Positions 15,314 through 52,355 of a stretch of 64,000 nucleotides of DNA are shown here, piece by piece. The notes under the pieces were generated by a model, which searched no databases, was not told the origin of the DNA, and was given only the letters and a program-made list of their open reading frames with translations. Both the position numbers and the translations under genes were made by a program. The stretch is taken from contig JANMNP010000073.1 of the NCBI GenBank assembly GCA_031374105.1, forward strand, positions 671 through 64,670, in the 5' to 3' direction. Each line of letters starts with the position of its first letter. Position 1 is the stretch's first letter. The DNA comes from Novosphingobium sp. Lineage in GTDB: Bacteria; Pseudomonadota; Alphaproteobacteria; Sphingomonadales; Sphingomonadaceae.

Positions 15314-16513
15314 ATGCGCGCGCGGTTTCGTTCGCTCGCGGCGGTTGTGTTGCTGGCTGCACTTGCGGGCTGTGGCCGCCTGATCCCTGAAGGACGGATT
15401 TCGTCCCCTCCCACCGCGACAATAAGGCCAATTGCCGCCAGCGCTCTGCTTGCAGGTGTGACTGTTGGCCCATCGATTGGCAGCCTCAAGCTTGCAGGCG
15501 GAGATGCCAGCGGGGCGCTTTCTTCGTTTCGCGAAAGCTGTCCGCGCTTGCTTTCGCGCCGCGATATCAGCGGATTGACGAGCAGTGAGGATTGGCAAGC
15601 CGCTTGCTCGGCTGCGCCAAGCTGGCCAGCCAGTGATGCGCCGCGCTTCTTCGACAGGTTCTTTGAAGCTGCCAGAATCGGCGACGGGACTAGCTTTGTA
15701 ACGGGCTATTTTGAGCCGGAGATTGCCGGTGTACGGGTTCGACAGCCAGGGTTTGACGTTCCGGTCTATGCTGTCCCGCCGGATCTGGTTCGTGCCAGGC
15801 TTGGCGATGCACCTCCTATCCCCAGCGGCCAGCAACCGCTTGGCCGTTACGGACCTGATGGCCTCTTTATGCCCTATTTTGAGCGCGCCGAGATCGTTGA
15901 TGGTGTGCTGATGGGCAAGGGGCTGGAAATAGCCTGGGCTGCGGATCCGATCGAGTTCTTCTTTCTTCAGATCCAGGGTTCGGGCCGTCTTCGCAGCCCC
16001 GACGGCAGCGTGCTTCGGATCGGCTATGCCGGACAGAACGGGCGTGATTATGCGGGGATTGGCTCACTGATGCGCGAACGCGGGTTGATTGGCACAGGGC
16101 CAGGCCAATATGCGGGCTCAATGCAGGGCATGATGCAGTATCTGCGCGAGCATCCGGCTGATGGCCGTGCCCTGATGCGCCAGAACAAGAGTTGGATTTT
16201 CTTCAAGGAATCGTTCGGAGATGGGCCGCTTGGCGCGCTGAACGTGCCAGTGCGCGCGCGCAGCAGTGTGGCTACCGATCCCAATTTCGTCCCACTGGGA
16301 GCACCGGTCTGGCTGTCGCTCGACCGGCCCGAGGCCAATGGCTTATGGATTGCGCAGGATACCGGCGGGGCGATCAAGGGCGCCAACCGCTTTGATAGCT
16401 TCTGGGGCGCAGGCGACGAAGCGCGGCTGATCGCTGGCGGGATGAGCGGGCGCGGTCAGGCGCTGGTGTTCCTGCCAAAAGGTACGCTGGCCCGGCTGGG
16501 TGCAAAGTATTGA
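15314..16513 (+). CDS. mltA: membrane-bound lytic murein transglycosylase A (MltA family)
   Basis: The lipoprotein signal is LLAALAGC. The MltA/3D-domain motifs are present (GYFEPE, FFLQIQGSGRL, GYAGQNG..Y..IG, QDTGGAIKGANRFDSFWG). Confidence 0.88.
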   Translation: MRARFRSLAAVVLLAALAGCGRLIPEGRISSPPTATIRPIAASALLAGVTVGPSIGSLKLAGGDASGALSSFRESCPRLLSRRDISGLTSSEDWQAACSAAPSWPASDAPRFFDRFFEAARIGDGTSFVTGYFEPEIAGVRVRQPGFDVPVYAVPPDLVRARLGDAPPIPSGQQPLGRYGPDGLFMPYFERAEIVDGVLMGKGLEIAWAADPIEFFFLQIQGSGRLRSPDGSVLRIGYAGQNGRDYAGIGSLMRERGLIGTGPGQYAGSMQGMMQYLREHPADGRALMRQNKSWIFFKESFGDGPLGALNVPVRARSSVATDPNFVPLGAPVWLSLDRPEANGLWIAQDTGGAIKGANRFDSFWGAGDEARLIAGGMSGRGQALVFLPKGTLARLGAKY

Positions 16514-17094
16514 GGCCTCCGCGCGGATTGAGCGCGGGCGAAGCGGCGCTGTGGGCAAGGGTCGCGCAGACGGTTCGTCCGCTAAATCCTTCCCGCGCCG
16601 GGGAGGGGGACCATGCGAAGCATGGTGGTGGGGCGCGTGCGGTAGTCGTGACGGCGATAGAGCAGGATCACTCGCCTGTGCCCCTCCACCACCTGCGGTG
16701 GTCCCCCTCCCCCAAGGGGGAGGATCGGAAACCCCAGACTCTCGATCGCCACGGCCTCGACAACTCATGGGAGCGCAAACTTGCCAAGGCAGCGATTGCG
16801 CCCGATTTCACGCTCGATCTGCATGGGTATGGTCTGGATGCAGCGCATAGTCGGCTCGATCATGGGCTGTCGCTCGCGCTTGCGCAGGGCGCGCGGATGG
16901 TGCTGGTGATCACTGGCCGTCCTCGTCCGGTTGATCCGGCGGATCGCGGTTCGCGGCGCGGGGCGATCAGGGCCAAGCTGCTCGATTGGCTCGCAGCAGG
17001 TCCGCATGGCTCGCGGATCGCTGCGGTGCGCCAGGCGCATCCTCGACATGGCGGGGCGGGGGCGGTTTATGTGGTGCTGCGCAAGACGCGCTAG
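16510..17094 (+). CDS. Smr-domain protein carrying an in-frame 46-codon repeat-element insertion
   Basis: The C-terminal Smr domain is present ([20 protein letters not shown]...[12 protein letters not shown]...). A TTG start overlaps the mltA stop. Residues [13 protein letters not shown]...[15 protein letters not shown] are the translation of the repeat element at 16587-16724. Confidence 0.8.
16587..16724. mobile_element. miniature (cargo-less) copy of the GGGGAGGGGGACC / GGTCCCCCTCCCC inverted-arm element, 138 bp
   Basis: The outer ends are TCCTTCCC (16587-16594) and GGGGGAGGA (16716-16724). The left arm is GGGGAGGGGGACCATGCGAAGCATGGTGGTGGGG (16600-16633). The right arm is CCCCTCCACCACCTGCGGTGGTCCCCCTCCCC (16681-16712). 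The architecture matches the copies at 48497-48621 and 51295-51762. Confidence 0.8.
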
Positions 17095-47813: not shown

Positions 47814-48491
47814 ATGTTTGAAGAAGTACTGGTGCTGCGCTGGTTCCACATTATCGCCATGGTCTATTGGCTGGGCGGCGAATGGGGGGTGTTCCAGACG
47901 AGCTACAATGTGGTCAACCGCAAGCTTTCGCTCGATGAACGGCGGCGGCATATGGAAACCGCCTATCGGATCGATATTCTGGCGCGAACCGGGATTATCC
48001 TGCTGCTGCCGCTGGGACTGCACATGGGCTTTATCTATGGATTGCAGCCCTATGGCGGCGGCTACCTGACAGTCATGTGGTTGGCGGTGGCGGCGTGGAT
48101 GGCGTTGTGCTGGGCCGCGTTCATCAAGCGGGAGAGCGACCTTGGCCTCAAACTGACCAAGCTTGACGAGCGCATCCGCTTCATCCTGATCCCGACGATC
48201 TTCGTGGTCGGCATATCCTCGCTGATGGGTAACGGCCCGTTCGAGGCGAGCGAAGGAACCCGCTGGTATGCCTGGAAGTTCACGCTTTATGGCTTTGCCT
48301 TGTGCATCGGGCTTGGCCTACGATTCATCATGCGGGCCTGGACCACGCGGTTCCGCCAGCTGGCCGAAGGGCCGAATCCTGCAGCCGAAGCCGCGCTGGA
48401 GCGTGAGATCGGCTATGGCCGGGCGATGGCCTATGTCTACTGGATCACCATTTCCGGGATCTGCTTCCTTGGCACAGTGAAGCCGATTTGA
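47814..48491 (+). CDS. integral membrane protein, unknown function (HemJ/CopD-like N-terminal motif by eye)
   Basis: About six TM segments. The N-terminal sequence LRWFHIIAMVYWLGGEWG recalls the H-I-I-A..W.GG motif of HemJ/CopD-type proteins. This is weak and from memory only. Confidence 0.65.
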   Translation: MFEEVLVLRWFHIIAMVYWLGGEWGVFQTSYNVVNRKLSLDERRRHMETAYRIDILARTGIILLLPLGLHMGFIYGLQPYGGGYLTVMWLAVAAWMALCWAAFIKRESDLGLKLTKLDERIRFILIPTIFVVGISSLMGNGPFEASEGTRWYAWKFTLYGFALCIGLGLRFIMRAWTTRFRQLAEGPNPAAEAALEREIGYGRAMAYVYWITISGICFLGTVKPI

Positions 48492-48496
48492 GGCTT

Positions 48497-48621
48497 TCCT
48501 CCCTGAGCTTTGCTCGGGGAGGGGGACCATGCGCAGCATGGTGGAGGGGTATTGGGCAACTGTGGAATACCCCTCCACCAACCTTCGGGCGGTCCCCCTC
48601 CCCAAACAGGTTTGGGGAGGA
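48497..48621. mobile_element. miniature (cargo-less) copy of the inverted-arm element, 125 bp
   Basis: The outer ends are TCCTCCC (48497-48503) and GGGGAGGA (48614-48621). The left arm is GGGGAGGGGGACCATGCGCAGCATGGTGGAGGGG and the right arm is CCCCTCCACCAACCTTCGGGCGGTCCCCCTCCCC. The element fills the whole gap between two convergent stop codons. Confidence 0.8.
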
Positions 48622-48626
48622 TCACA

Positions 48627-49205
48627 TCACTTCTGAATCTGGTTCATCTCGATCAGGATGCCATCGGGATCGAAGAAGTTGCAGCCCCGAACCCGGATCG
48701 GCGGACCGCCATTGCGCCCGGCATACTCCTGCATCCGCGCCTCGGCAGTAAAGGTCACCCCTGGGATTGATCTGGCCCGCTCGCAGCGGCCATCGACGTC
48801 ATCGGTGTTCATCACGATCACCACCCCGCCCGGCCCCATGCGCTTGGGATAAACGCCCGGATCGGCCAGCGGCGGCGTGGTCCATTCCATCAGCCCGACC
48901 CAGCCAACCCAGGGGTCATTGGCGTTTAGCAGCACCAGTCGCGCTTTGGCCCCCGGCAGTCCGGCGGGCAGCGCCACCCCGCTGGTTTCGACCACCGCAT
49001 CATAGTTGACCTTCATCCCCACCACATCGCGGTAGAGCTTCAGGCTGTTTTCCATGTTGCGGACGATCAGCGTGACCCGCCGGACATCGGTGGGCAGGCG
49101 CTCGGCCGGTGCGGTGACTCCTGGTGCTGCCGGGGCGGTGGACACGTTTTCGGCATTGGCGCAACTGCTCAGCAGCAGGGCGATCAGGGGAACGGCATTC
49201 TTCAT
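48627..49205 (-). CDS. exported VOC-family lipoprotein
   Basis: The lipobox is LIALLLSSC. The VOC pattern follows (RRVTLIVRNMENSLKLYRDVVGM ... FDPDGILIEM). This is the last gene of the minus-strand operon. Confidence 0.75.
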   Translation of the reverse strand: MKNAVPLIALLLSSCANAENVSTAPAAPGVTAPAERLPTDVRRVTLIVRNMENSLKLYRDVVGMKVNYDAVVETSGVALPAGLPGAKARLVLLNANDPWVGWVGLMEWTTPPLADPGVYPKRMGPGGVVIVMNTDDVDGRCERARSIPGVTFTAEARMQEYAGRNGGPPIRVRGCNFFDPDGILIEMNQIQK

Positions 49206-50383
49206 CGGCTTTCCTCCACAGCGCCACTGGCCAGCAGCGCATCAATTCTGGTCTCATCATAGCCAAGCCCCGCCAGCACGGCGCGGGCATCTGCGCCGGG
49301 CAGGGGCAGTCTGGTCGCTCCTCCGGGGCGTTTTCCGTCCATCTCCAGCGGGATGGTCGGCAGGCGTGTTTCGGTGCCATTGTCCAATGTCACTGGCTCC
49401 AGCCCCCCGGTGGCAAGGTGGGGATCTTCGAACAAATCCTCGGGCCGTCCGATCGGGGCAAACGGCATGCCGGTCCCGTCCAGTTTCGCGATCACCTCGG
49501 CGCGGGTCATCCCGGAGATCAGCGCGCGGATGGTGGGCAGGATCCGGTCCCGCGCCAGCACGCGCTGGTTGTTGGCGCGGATGGTTTCGTCTGCCCACAG
49601 GGCATCGAGCGCAAACATCGCGCAGAATTTCTCCCACAGCGCGTCGGTGACAACGCCGATGAACACCGGCTCGTCGCGGGTTTCAAACACGTCATAGATC
49701 GCCCATGCCGAAACCCGCGCGGGCATCGGCGCAGCGGGCTTCCCGGTCACCGCGAACTGCGCCATATGCTGGCCGACCAGATAGGCGGTGGTCTCAAACA
49801 GGCTGGCGACGATCTTCTGCCCAGCCCCTGTGCGGTGGCGCTCCTCCAGGGCGGCAAGAATCCCGATCACTCCAAACATTCCGCCAGCCACGTCAATCAC
49901 GCTTGCTCCCGCACGCAAAGGTTTGCCGGGCGGCCCGGTCATATAGGCCAGCCCGCCCATCATCTGCGCCACCTCGTCCAGCGCGGTGCGCTGTTCGTAT
50001 GGGCCAGGCAGAAAGCCCTTTTCGCTGGCATAGATCAGGCGTGGATTGGCGGCGGACAGCGCCTCATACCCCAGCCCCAGCCGATCGAGCGCGCCGGGGC
50101 GGAAATTCTCCACCACCACATCGGCCCGCGTGCAAAGCTCCTGCGCGATCGTCAGACCCGATGCGGATTTGAGGTTCAGACAGATCGATTGCTTGCCCCG
50201 GTTATACATCGGGAAATAGCCCGCGCCCGAACCCAGCAGCCGCCGGGTCTGATCGCCGCCGATCGGCTCAACCCGGATCACTTCGGCGCCAAGGCCTGTC
50301 AGAATATGACCCACTGTTGGCCCCATCACCATATGGGTAAACTCGATCACCTTGATCCCTGCAAGCGGTGTGGGACCAGTCAT
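49202..50383 (-). CDS. family III CoA-transferase (CaiB/BaiF)
   Basis: The motifs LAGIKVIEFTHMVMGPT, GAEVIRVEP..GD and VVVENFRPG are present, with the overall CaiB/BaiF pattern. Confidence 0.92.
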   Translation of the reverse strand: MTGPTPLAGIKVIEFTHMVMGPTVGHILTGLGAEVIRVEPIGGDQTRRLLGSGAGYFPMYNRGKQSICLNLKSASGLTIAQELCTRADVVVENFRPGALDRLGLGYEALSAANPRLIYASEKGFLPGPYEQRTALDEVAQMMGGLAYMTGPPGKPLRAGASVIDVAGGMFGVIGILAALEERHRTGAGQKIVASLFETTAYLVGQHMAQFAVTGKPAAPMPARVSAWAIYDVFETRDEPVFIGVVTDALWEKFCAMFALDALWADETIRANNQRVLARDRILPTIRALISGMTRAEVIAKLDGTGMPFAPIGRPEDLFEDPHLATGGLEPVTLDNGTETRLPTIPLEMDGKRPGGATRLPLPGADARAVLAGLGYDETRIDALLASGAVEESR

Positions 50384-51291
50384 CGTGCCAGCCTTTCGTG
50401 ATAGTCCAGCATCGGCCCGGCATCGGGGGTGAAGCCATACAGCGGCTCACCCGGCAGAGCCGCTTCCAGGATTTTGCGCACTTCCAGCAGCCGGTCCAGA
50501 TCAATCCCGGTTTCAAGCCCCATGGCATTGAGCATCAGCACCAGATCCTCGGTCACCAGATTGCCCGAAGCGCCCGGCGCATAGGGGCACCCGCCCAATC
50601 CGCCGAGCGAGGCATCAAGCGTGGTGATCCCCTCATTCAGCCCCGCCAGTGCATTAGCAAGGCCCAGGCCACGGGTGTTGTGGAGGTGCAGCGTGGTAAG
50701 CTTGTCTCCCACCGCGCCGCGCACCTTGCGGATCAGCCGTTTGACCTGCGCGGGATCGGCATAGCCGGTGGTGTCTGACAGGCTGAATTCCTGCGCCCCA
50801 GCCTCGGCAGCAGCAGCGGCAAGGCGCACCACTTGTTCCTCGCTTACTGCGCCCTCAATAGTGCAGCCAAAGGCGGTCGATAGCCCCACCGCGAAATGGA
50901 CCCCTGCGGCTGCTGCGATCTGCGCCACCGCCGCGATCTCGGCCAGCATCGCGGGATGGTCCATCCGGACATTGCGCAGCGAGTGGGTTTCGCTCATCGA
51001 AAAGGGAATGCTCATTCCGTGAACTCCTGCCTTCACCGCCCGCGCCGCGCCTTTGGCATTGGGAACCAGCGCCACGACGTTAAGTCCGGGAATCTCCCGC
51101 GCAAAGGCGACCAGTTCGGGCGTGTCGGCCATCTGCGGCAACAGGCTGGCCGGCACGAAGCTGCCCACCTCAATCTCCGGCACGCCCGCCGCAGCCTCTG
51201 CCGCGATCCACGCTTTCTTGGCCTCCAGCGGCATCACCCGGCTGATCGATTGCAACCCGTCACGCGGGCCGACTTCGGAAATGAGGATCAT
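50380..51291 (-). CDS. hydroxymethylglutaryl-CoA lyase-like (DRE-TIM metallolyase)
   Basis: The motifs EVGPRDGLQ, LHLHNTRGLGLANALAG and GGLGGCPYAPGASGN are HMGL-like signatures. The start ATG overlaps the stop of the upstream chimeric ORF (ATGA). Confidence 0.92.
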   Translation of the reverse strand: MILISEVGPRDGLQSISRVMPLEAKKAWIAAEAAAGVPEIEVGSFVPASLLPQMADTPELVAFAREIPGLNVVALVPNAKGAARAVKAGVHGMSIPFSMSETHSLRNVRMDHPAMLAEIAAVAQIAAAAGVHFAVGLSTAFGCTIEGAVSEEQVVRLAAAAAEAGAQEFSLSDTTGYADPAQVKRLIRKVRGAVGDKLTTLHLHNTRGLGLANALAGLNEGITTLDASLGGLGGCPYAPGASGNLVTEDLVLMLNAMGLETGIDLDRLLEVRKILEAALPGEPLYGFTPDAGPMLDYHERLAR

Positions 51292-51674
51292 AGTTCCTCT
51301 CCAATCACGGATTGGGGAGGGGGACCGTCCGAAGGACGGTGGTGGGGTATGCGGCTGCTCGCCGCAGCAACGATCCGCTCCACTACACTTTCCATATTCC
51401 TCATCACGTCAGTCGCCCCAATCCGCAAAGTCGCGACACCAGCCTTGGCCATGAACGCATCGCGTGCCAGATCGTGCGCGGGATTATCACCCATATCATG
51501 CGCAATTCCATCAACCTCAATGCAAAGTCTGGCGGCTGCGCAGTAGAAGTCGAGCACGAATCGGTCTGCCGGATGCTGCCGACGGAATTTCAGTCCGCCC
51601 GGCCGTTTTCGCAGTTCGGTCCATAGCATCGCCTCGGGCATCGACATTGATCGGCGGAGTGACCGGGCGCGCAT
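51288..51674 (-). CDS. DUF559 (Vsr/restriction-endonuclease-like fold) protein, internal ATG at 51674
   Basis: 128 aa. MPEAMLWTELRKRPGGLKFRRQHPADRFVLDFYCAAARLCIEVDGIAHD...D..RDAFMAKAGVATLRI matches the DUF559 pattern as I remember it. The C-terminal PHHRPSDGPPPQSVIGEEL is a translation of the element arm. Confidence 0.8.
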   Translation of the reverse strand: MRARSLRRSMSMPEAMLWTELRKRPGGLKFRRQHPADRFVLDFYCAAARLCIEVDGIAHDMGDNPAHDLARDAFMAKAGVATLRIGATDVMRNMESVVERIVAAASSRIPHHRPSDGPPPQSVIGEEL

Positions 51675-52355
51675 TACGGAAGAGTTGGTGCGGGGGGGGA
51701 GGCGGGATACCCCTCCACCGCTCTTCGAGCGGTCCCCCTCCCCAGCCTGCGGCTGGGGAGGATTGAGATATACCCATGGTCGCAGCTGCCTGTCTGCTGC
51801 GGTCCATACGGCGATGGCTTGGCCGGATTTGAGGGTCAGGTCGATCACATCCAGCCCTTCGAGCAGCATGGCTTTCGCCTCTGCGTCCAGGGTAAAGTGA
51901 TAGGCTTCAGCACCGGCGCGCACCTCTTGCGCGGCAAGATCGACGGTGACGATCTGCCACTGCATCGCTGCAATCGCAGCGCGCGGCAGTTCAACAGGCA
52001 ACAACCCGTTGCGAATGCAATTGGCGCGAAAGATTGGGGCGAAGCTCTCCGCGACGATGCAGGTGATGCCATATTCCCTGAGCGCCCAGACCGCGTGTTC
52101 ACGGCTCGATCCGCAGCCGAAATTTGCCCCGCCCAGCAACAGGCTGGCACCCGCGGCATCGCGCTGGTTGAGCGCAAAGGCGGGGTCGGCGATCCGCTGA
52201 TCGGCATTGCTGTAGCGCCATGGAGCGAACAGACCGTCCGCCAGCCCAGTCCTCCCGGTGGAGCGCATTTCGCGGCTGGGGATGATCGTGTCGGTATCGA
52301 TGTTGTCGAGCAACAGCGGCACCGCGACTGAGGTGAGGGTGGTGAAGGGGGTCAT
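51288..52355 (-). CDS. LeuD-like aconitase-family small subunit (homology 51765-52355) whose frame runs on without a stop through the inserted element to 51288
   Basis: The first 197 aa carry the LeuD pattern (DNIDTDTIIP, GANFGCGSSREHAVWAL, GITCIVAESFAPIF..N). After ...RPWVYL the frame continues into the arm translation (NPPQPQAGEGDRSKSGGG) and the DUF559 ORF, giving 355 codons in total. Confidence 0.8.
   Translation of the reverse strand: MTPFTTLTSVAVPLLLDNIDTDTIIPSREMRSTGRTGLADGLFAPWRYSNADQRIADPAFALNQRDAAGASLLLGGANFGCGSSREHAVWALREYGITCIVAESFAPIFRANCIRNGLLPVELPRAAIAAMQWQIVTVDLAAQEVRAGAEAYHFTLDAEAKAMLLEGLDVIDLTLKSGQAIAVWTAADRQLRPWVYLNPPQPQAGEGDRSKSGGGVSRLPPRTNSSVMRARSLRRSMSMPEAMLWTELRKRPGGLKFRRQHPADRFVLDFYCAAARLCIEVDGIAHDMGDNPAHDLARDAFMAKAGVATLRIGATDVMRNMESVVERIVAAASSRIPHHRPSDGPPPQSVIGEEL
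51295..51762. mobile_element. full-length inverted-arm element carrying a DUF559/Vsr-like endonuclease ORF (~468 bp)
   Basis: The outer ends are TCCTCTCC (51295-51302) and GGGGAGGA (51755-51762). One arm is GGGGAGGGGGACCGTCCGAAGGACGGTGGTGGGG (51314-51347). The other arm is CCCCTCCACCGCTCTTCGAGCGGTCCCCCTCCCC (51710-51743). The DUF559-like ORF lies between the arms. Confidence 0.7.

Follow-up and report, generated by a model that had tools for sequence, protein, structure and literature searches.

Introduction

Palindromic repeats that lie in frame within unrelated genes have been described as Rickettsia palindromic elements (RPEs; Ogata et al. 2000, 2002, as cited in PMC10969869), and these are regarded as the extreme case of in-frame fusion by intragenic MITEs (miniature transposable elements with inverted repeats), which is not in itself unusual (PMC10969869). 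The other described systems closest to the locus reported here are the repetitive extragenic palindromes (REPs) and the inverted doublets that they form (REPINs), with their partner genes, the REP-associated tyrosine transposases (RAYTs; PMC3116915; bioRxiv 10.1101/2021.07.10.451892), and the small inverted-repeat families that include intragenic MITEs and the enterobacterial repetitive intergenic consensus (ERIC; Delihas 2007, 2011, PMC3184786; PMC10969869). Here we describe a 138-nt element at positions 16587-16724 of a 64,000-nt stretch of Novosphingobium sp. DNA from contig JANMNP010000073.1 (the whole stretch is called the window below), which lies in frame within the gene for an SmrB-type ribosome-collision nuclease. 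The element is probably a non-autonomous, REPIN-like doublet of a dispersed alphaproteobacterial repeat family associated with DUF559 endonuclease genes, tolerated in the tether of the SmrB-type protein and renewed there by other copies of the family.

The family resembles RPEs as they have been described: in both cases palindromes of ~100-150 bp occur in frame in unrelated housekeeping genes and also in non-coding DNA, and the extra peptide is placed where the fold tolerates it, its translation being in our case a prediction from the reading frame. Unlike RPEs, which are found in reduced intracellular genomes, this family occurs in free-living, GC-rich Sphingomonadales and in other Alphaproteobacteria; it is built of two REP-like arms that also occur singly and that flank DUF559 genes; and the copy in the Smr gene replaces a linker rather than adding a segment, at a site that is occupied across genera. 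With the REP/REPIN-RAYT systems the family has in common its GC-rich hairpin units, its inverted doublets with a short spacer and its singlets (PMC3116915; bioRxiv 10.1101/2021.07.10.451892), as well as inverted units around a protein gene and long persistence in lineages. However, the gene flanked here encodes a DUF559 endonuclease of the PD-(D/E)XK type and not a Y1/HUH transposase, the DUF559 cassettes are not rare relative to the doublets (seven wide arm pairs to 45 short ones among the matches listed), and a notable share of the copies lies in frame within genes, REPs being extragenic by definition. Like intragenic MITEs and ERIC sequences, the element is small and non-autonomous, has inverted repeats and keeps the host open reading frame (ORF) open; unlike them it has no target-site duplication at the three window copies or at four aligned copies, and no transposase-bearing parent insertion sequence is known for it. 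Free-standing homing endonucleases offer a further comparison. One of these, I-Bth0305I, reportedly has a Vsr-like PD-(D/E)XK fold, and such enzymes are said to be encoded by a small gene amid repeated, symmetric, target-like sequence, as is the case here; homing-type gene conversion between copies would explain the homogeneity of the arms at the nucleotide level. The DUF559 genes differ from them in having no intron or intein context, and in that their targets would be dispersed repeats and not one allele.

The element and its copies at unrelated loci

The element and its parts are as follows.

16587-16724, + strand: palindromic doublet (REPIN-like) of 138 nt, predicted to be translated as residues 26-72; aligns with copies at three unrelated loci
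16582-16638, + strand: left arm (nhmmer E = 3e-12, with arm alignments and hairpin covariation)
16639-16673, + strand: spacer between the arms, 35 nt, of a type common to copies elsewhere and different at the Smr site of close relatives
16674-16730, - strand: right arm, an inverted copy of the left-arm unit (nhmmer E = 8e-10)

The element is an imperfect palindrome beginning with TCCTTCCC and ending with GGGGGAGGA, with outer inverted repeats of 23 nt (16591-16613 and 16699-16721, 83% complementary) and inner ones of 19 nt (16623-16641 and 16673-16691, 79% complementary). Its RNA folds at -97 kcal/mol compared with -70.5 +/- 4.1 kcal/mol in dinucleotide shuffles (z = -6.5), a value equalled by none of 200 shuffles, and the window holds six occurrences of the arm motif GGGGAGGGGGACC, which form three inverted pairs, where 0.55 would be expected. 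When aligned, the six window arms gave one architecture of ~57 nt, namely TCCTCCCC, a loop of 4-12 nt, GGGGAGGGGGACC, a short hairpin whose loop is GAA or GCA, and GGTGGAGGGG; in the left arm of the Smr gene these parts are hairpin 1 (TCCTTCCCG/CGGGGAGG), then GGGGAGGGGGACC, hairpin 2 (ACCATGCGAAGCATGGT) and GGTGGTGGGG. A first-pass annotation, made from the letters of the DNA, had reported a 138-bp inverted-arm element at these positions with the same arm architecture as a DUF559 cassette elsewhere in the window. The palindrome, the shuffle test, the motif excess and the boundaries all bear out the element, and the six-arm alignment together with the profile matches bears out the shared architecture. 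An Rfam search with the element returned only chance matches to microRNA precursors, far below threshold.

The unit in its entire length, ATCCT to AGGAT with the spacer, aligned with three unrelated loci, where the flanks outside it are unrelated: a copy in frame in an SDR-like gene beside folB (L212), a copy downstream of a DUF1244 gene (L213) and a third locus (L214). These alignments put the ends of the element at ATCCT...AGGAT, within 1 nt of the coordinates first given. As the alignment with unrelated loci takes in the spacer, the interior of the Smr-site copy would have come from a dispersed family. An exhaustive phmmer search with the 49-aa element peptide likewise found the same type of spacer in other proteins; its 15 matches were mostly spurious ORFs over intergenic copies, the informative ones being P0128, P0125 and P0126. 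A word-indexed protein search with this peptide gave no candidates, probably owing to its low complexity.

The host gene and its reading frame

The gene that carries the element has the following parts.

16510-17094, + strand: SmrB-type Smr-domain gene, 194 aa (from the ORF list; Pfam Smr E = 5.8e-17)
16534-16572, + strand: N-terminal helix, codons 9-21, with the '--xxxa' motif (AlphaFold2 helix; motif kept in 80 orthologues)
16813-17082, + strand: SMR nuclease domain at aa 102-191, lying downstream of the element (PF01713, matched over profile positions 1-77 of 77; confident AlphaFold2 fold)

In the SmrB clade of proteobacterial ribosome-collision nucleases, the '--xxxa' motif lies in an N-terminal helix, from which an unstructured and little conserved stretch leads to the SMR domain (bioRxiv 10.1101/2021.08.16.456513). 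The same architecture was found here, with a helix at residues 9-21, disorder at 29-75 and the SMR domain at 102-191: an AlphaFold2 model made with 20 orthologues predicted the helix, left residues 29-75 unstructured (pLDDT < 50) and gave a confident SMR fold from about residue 86. The element, as residues 26-72, is nearly the entire tether between helix and SMR domain, and its placement by the first-pass annotation in a linker between the conserved N-terminus and the Smr core is in keeping with the disorder that AlphaFold2 predicts there. Orthologues have EEAALW or DEAALW (E/D-E-A-x-L-W) as their N-terminal motif and the window has GEAALW; the window segment L-S-A-G-E-A-A-L-W aligned to L-S-E-E-D-Q-A-L-F of E. 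coli SmrB, the N-terminal helix of which binds ribosomal protein uS2. The best solved relative of the SMR domain is PDB 3qd7 (YdaL/SmrA). Because the NCBIfam equivalog cut-offs were missed both for SmrB (23.6 bits vs 128) and for SmrA (52.2 vs 180), we call the protein SmrB-type rather than SmrB; by its sequence it would be a member of the SmrA/SmrB-like clade, of the SmrB type, and no proven equivalog.

The gene follows mltA and faces aroC. Its TTG start at 16510 overlaps the stop codon of mltA (TTGA) and aligns with the ATG of orthologues; given this, the start in the source-genome annotation, TTG 16528, which yields a protein of 188 aa with the whole element included, is probably six codons too late. 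Past the N-terminus the frame has only three further starts, two GTGs within the element and, in the SMR domain, the ATG of codon 130. Since no later start lies 5' of the SMR domain, that domain needs readthrough of at least part of the element, which is in all likelihood translated as part of the protein. A gene start after 16724, which the first-pass annotation had named as an outcome that would overturn its reading, can be set aside, as the next start is the one at codon 130 within the SMR domain, the 188-aa gene call contains the whole element, and the N-terminal motif is kept in all orthologues. Its description of the element as intragenic and frame-keeping, within an open host frame, agrees with the ORF at 16510-17094. 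The missing stop codon is nevertheless weak evidence, because the element is open in four of six frames and the doublets of the family are mostly open (on average 4.0 of 6 frames). All 10 proteins that are 87-92% identical to the window Smr protein have the element peptide, with one in-frame single-codon deletion among them; in this group the element is stably inherited, and its peptide evolves like the remaining protein. With regard to the neighbourhood, smrB of E. coli K-12 (L211, 2448606-2449157) adjoins prmB-aroC and the window Smr gene adjoins aroC, a possible remnant of a conserved linkage.

Replacement of the tether

We compared the locus in 80 species representatives (Novosphingobium and Erythrobacteraceae genera, ~6.5 kb per locus), in which the Smr proteins are all ~185-205 aa long, and extracted the tether from 79 of them. 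Tethers with arms of the family (n=19) have a median length of 57 aa (range 50-66), those with a second palindromic family (n=6) a median of 55 aa, and those with no palindrome (n=53) a median of 51 aa (range 43-72); the window tether has 55 aa, only ~9 of which lie outside the element. Counting L014, which has both arms and whose tether was not extracted, family arms occur in 20 of the 80 species. A close relative, L083, has an arm-less, unrelated linker of equal length, and its flanks resemble the window to about the same degree as do the flanks of arm-bearing relatives (79% mean column identity). Because the tethers are of near-equal length with and without arms, and because L083 has an arm-less linker of equal length, the element appears to have replaced the native linker rather than lengthened the tether. 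The net gain of 46 residues claimed in the first-pass annotation does not hold up against these lengths (median 51 aa without arms vs 57 aa with them and 55 aa in the window), and the comparison it had proposed, whether the orthologues of close relatives lack the 46 residues, gave the answer that arm-less orthologues keep tethers of near-equal length.

The outgroup Sphingomonas parapaucimobilis, which has the same Tim44-mltA-smr synteny, has an arm-less tether of 54 aa with VKGRVPP. As the KGRVPP motif is also found in many arm-less tethers of the ingroup, the ancestral state was presumably an arm-less, Pro/Ala-rich tether of ~50 aa with KGRVPP. Arm-less linkers fold no better than the GC-rich background. 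We rejected the idea that they are in general decayed arms; they have no residual profile similarity at E <= 10, and the outgroup tether is arm-less with KGRVPP.

An old and recurrent site

In a profile search of the 80 loci, all 27 arm matches fell inside the Smr tether and none in ~490 kb of flanks. The left arm begins at the same codon, after Pro-Leu codons (CCGCTnnA|TCCTCCCC), in Novosphingobium, Altererythrobacter, Croceibacterium, Qipengyuania and Parerythrobacter. One locus, L001, has its spacer and right arm in common with L081 and a left arm that has decayed by a 15-nt deletion and substitutions, which shows vertical descent. The window, L081 and L082 share the junctions and the left arm and have unrelated spacers, and a variant left arm (peptide GEVAARRADGGG) was found in five species. 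In L002, L003, L007 and L016 the tether holds a second REP-like family (CCCCACCCC..CCCCTCCCCTGAAGGGGAGGGG), which is also present there, in reversed orientation, in L048 and L075; in L016 and L048 it comes after a retained stub of the arm hairpin of the first family. This second family, with the structure CCCCACCCC..CCCCTCCCC-TGAA-GGGGAGGGG and the peptides PSPSPEGEGN and PLPFRGGVGVG, was seen in Smr tethers and at L089, L087 and L088. In a neighbour-joining tree of MltA and Smr (42 loci, window not included) the arm-bearing species are scattered, many losses and many gains not being separable. A minimum-free-energy scan of all loci, which is weaker evidence than the arm profile search, found very stable segments enriched in the linker (18 of 51 clusters), GC-rich coding DNA giving many that are near the threshold. 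We infer that the Smr site is old and recurrent and that its interior was renewed from dispersed copies, since this interior (spacer and hairpin type) differs between close relatives and matches unrelated loci.

At the nucleotide level, the arm-core columns are 87% identical among the 12 species with a left arm, compared with 51% at the four-fold sites of the SMR domain (39% expected from composition). Gly and Pro codons within the arm are 90% identical at their third positions, and this holds also for T and A, bases seldom found at four-fold sites here, so that the conservation is not at the protein level. Over 25 Smr-site arms, 94% of the hairpin cells are paired, and there are 26 double-change cells as against 7.6 +/- 2.1 in shuffles, i.e., compensatory changes; one hairpin pair occurs as GC in eight arms, UA in six, CG in four and AU in three. 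Renewal would explain why the arms stay close to the consensus of the family, also at synonymous positions, where saturation is seen at neutral sites.

The repeat family and DUF559 genes

The window holds two further copies of the arms in inverted pairs.

48494-48625, no strand assigned: intergenic doublet, the second window copy, which fills the 135-nt gap between the stop codons of the convergent ORFs 47814-48491 (+) and 48627-49205 (-)
51291-51768, - strand: DUF559 cassette, with arms at 51291-51355 and 51702-51768 around a DUF559 endonuclease gene

The intergenic doublet may act as a bidirectional terminator-like hairpin. The gene in the cassette matched DUF559 (PF04480, E = 9.8e-26) and PDB 3hrl, an "endonuclease-like protein" (E = 2e-12), with a match to NCBIfam PRK09767 below the cut-off, and on the Pfam and PDB matches this partner of the element would belong to an endonuclease family with a Vsr-like PD-(D/E)XK fold. 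To our knowledge, DUF559 has no assigned function and is not a known transposase. Searches of the literature found no published link between DUF559 and repeats, and no description of this repeat family in Sphingomonadales. The cassette fills the junction between a LeuD-like gene (Aconitase_C; 51288-52355, - strand) and the ORF 50380-51291; the LeuD-like ORF has no stop before the cassette and continues in frame through arm, DUF559 and arm to 355 aa, so that the LeuD-like protein either ends in 155 aa derived from the repeat or has lost its true stop.

Metagenome contigs scanned with a one-arm pattern yielded at least 120 loci, together 772 kb, with at least 190 arms. Among the matches listed, to which the counts from this sample given here and below refer, there are 52 convergent arm pairs with a bimodal distribution of gaps, 45 at 6-106 nt and seven at 350-389 nt; a DUF559 gene, lying one way round or the other, is enclosed by each of the seven wide pairs, and arms stand next to 10 of the 11 DUF559 matches. 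Unpaired arms number 86 of the 190. In its termini (ATCCTYCCC...GGGGAGGAT), the length of its doublets (112-210 nt) and its numbers (190 or more arms at 120 or more metagenome loci) the family has the terminal inverted repeats, small size and many copies of a MITE. In an independent sample of plasmids, chosen by DUF559 similarity, the same arms flank DUF559 genes in Sphingobium (L085) and in Sphingomonas (L086, between pntAA and pntAB). Other arms flank three more: REP-like inverted arms of 66 nt, 361 nt apart, on a Novosphingobium plasmid; arms of 43 nt related to the second family, 462 nt apart, on a Sinorhizobium plasmid; and second-family arms 365 nt apart, between sufB and sufC, on a Sphingomonas plasmid (L089). 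A CCTCCCC-loop-GGGGAGG hairpin is common to all types of arm that flank DUF559. At L086 (pntAA/pntAB) and L089 (sufB/sufC), which are on Sphingomonas parapaucimobilis plasmids, the DUF559 cassettes lie exactly between adjacent genes of conserved operons, which suggests that they prefer gene junctions, as in the window.

In-frame copies in other genes

At least five of the 45 short doublets in the metagenome sample lie within ORFs that have a coding signature in third-position GC content (GC3) on both sides. By Pfam their host genes (L113, L148, L187, L161 and L116) encode methylmalonyl-CoA mutase, MetH, ValS, TruB and an ImuB-like protein; the copy in the mutase lies between the barrel and the B12-binding domain, that in MetH within the activation domain and that in TruB between its two domains. 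With the SDR-like gene (L212) and Smr this makes seven host families with in-frame copies. Given the average of 4.0 of 6 open frames in these doublets, an ORF would stay open after roughly two ninths of random insertions. An intragenic copy that preserves the frame had seemed unusual in the first-pass annotation, a judgement that does not survive the finding that 20 of 80 species have family arms at this position in Smr and that at least six other genes have in-frame copies.

Discussion

We propose that the doublet sits in the sole part of the gene able to absorb it, the poorly conserved and predicted-disordered tether, where it would be functionally near-neutral, and that it has persisted there as the tether would need length rather than sequence. 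Renewal of its interior may proceed through site-specific re-insertion or through gene conversion for which the shared termini ATCCTCCCC...GGGGAGGAT serve as anchors, and copying from dispersed family members would hold the arms near their consensus. Such renewal is favoured over conservation in situ because the junctions are constant, the spacers are swapped among relatives and the interior matches dispersed copies. More speculatively, the DUF559 endonuclease might recognise or cleave the arm hairpins and drive the copying in a homing-like manner, of which the bimodal gaps and the homogeneity of the arms at the nucleotide level would be indirect signs; only short doublets would then be seen at the Smr site, because the Smr gene would not survive it if the DUF559 gene itself homed there. 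It is possible, although we put it forward tentatively and do not hold it to be the probable case, that arms and DUF559 together form an undescribed REPIN-like system in which a Vsr-fold endonuclease replaces the RAYT, copies are made by homing-like conversion, coding DNA is colonised in frame as by RPEs, since most frames of the doublets are open, and the SmrB tether has been held across genera for a very long time.

Several observations weigh against a renewed, tolerated family doublet at this site. The absence of a target-site duplication from the three window copies and the four aligned copies is one, and a clean empty site was not found among the sequences compared. In L018 (3075-3242) the KGRVPP core lies between two arms, and in L011 (3081-3134) KGRVPP follows a lone left arm; to judge from their sequences, these two loci would need separate insertions of single arms, and insertion of the doublet as one unit does not fit them; arms can evidently be acquired singly. 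Among the Smr-site arms 15 of 17 have a short loop, compared with 51 of 143 (36%) in the metagenome sample, and the four other window arms are long-loop; such a bias is less readily squared with free exchange with local copies than with a site-specific lineage or with selection acting on the locus. The tether is back at ~55 aa despite the acquisition of 114-138 nt, a return for which the proposal gives no account. In addition, the arm frequency of 25% is probably an overestimate, the 80 loci being the best tblastn matches to an arm-bearing query.

The main rival, attractive but weakened, is a function specific to this locus, with the hairpin kept as a cis-acting structure, e.g., one that slows the ribosome and so provides SmrB feedback on its own mRNA, or one that affects mRNA stability. 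The same-codon arms in many genera, a nucleotide conservation far beyond that of neutral sites, hairpins kept by compensatory changes, the very stable fold (z = -6.5) and the distinct short-loop subtype at the Smr site would all be expected if this were so, as would the convergence of several unrelated palindromic families on the same ~150-nt tether with nearly none in the flanks. However, a palindrome is absent from the tether in about two thirds of the species sampled and in the Sphingomonas outgroup, and arm-less linkers fold no better than background; copies of this unit, with its spacer, are found at unrelated loci, between genes as well as in other genes; the conservation is that of the family consensus rather than of this site; and the interior has been swapped between close relatives. 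On balance we consider a locus-specific role improbable. A step further down in probability, and in our view very unlikely, is the model of the first-pass annotation, a recent, simple insertion that added 46 residues to a normal linker. While the element is indeed a complete dispersed unit with sharp boundaries, and the family copy in ValS appears to be a net addition relative to what we take to be the E. coli sequence around WPEN...SGFDI, the tether of 55 aa is set against an arm-less median of 51 aa, only ~9 of its residues lie outside the element, the ancestral KGRVPP is gone, and the occupancy is old, as the site is occupied in distant genera and the left arm of L001 has decayed.

The arms might also be ordinary REPs, mobilised by a RAYT elsewhere in the genome, with DUF559 as a passenger or a selfish gene that lands in REP doublets. 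Their GC-rich hairpin units, inverted doublets with short spacers and many singlets match REPs and REPINs (PMC3116915), and the DUF559 ORF lies in either orientation between the arms, as expected of cargo. Yet DUF559 is the sole gene seen between arms, in all seven wide pairs, in the window cassette and at five of six plasmid loci, and with four arm families, in a pattern that mirrors the RAYT-REP relation with DUF559 in the position of the RAYT. We encountered no RAYT (Y1_Tnp) between arms in the window, the wide pairs or the plasmids, where DUF559 stands instead, although no genome-wide search for a RAYT was made. This explanation strikes us as unlikely, if less so than the two just discussed. 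We give practically no credence to a native Gly/Pro-rich linker that is palindromic by chance and contains no element; the tether has a biased composition, and GC-rich DNA often contains hairpins and long open frames, but the same arm architecture recurs at two other window loci and in hundreds of other places, the whole unit aligns with unrelated loci, and the arm motif occurs six times against 0.55 expected. A fortuitous palindrome is refuted by the six-arm alignment, the metagenome arms and the whole-unit alignment taken together.

The main interest of the locus lies in the association of DUF559 with a repeat family and in the RPE-like behaviour of this family in free-living Alphaproteobacteria. 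In-frame, protein-coding palindromes, hitherto treated as a peculiarity of Rickettsia, would now extend to such bacteria and to essential genes (ValS, MetH, TruB), and for annotation this means that peptides such as ...PLHxxxxGPPPRxGED in alphaproteobacterial proteins are likely to be repeat-derived. DUF559 becomes a candidate partner enzyme for the repeat, and the REP-like frame around DUF559 genes yields a concrete, testable hypothesis for the role of this family. The Smr gene itself would be a case of a disordered tether wholly overwritten by selfish DNA with its length kept, and thus a natural experiment indicating that the linker may need length and not sequence.

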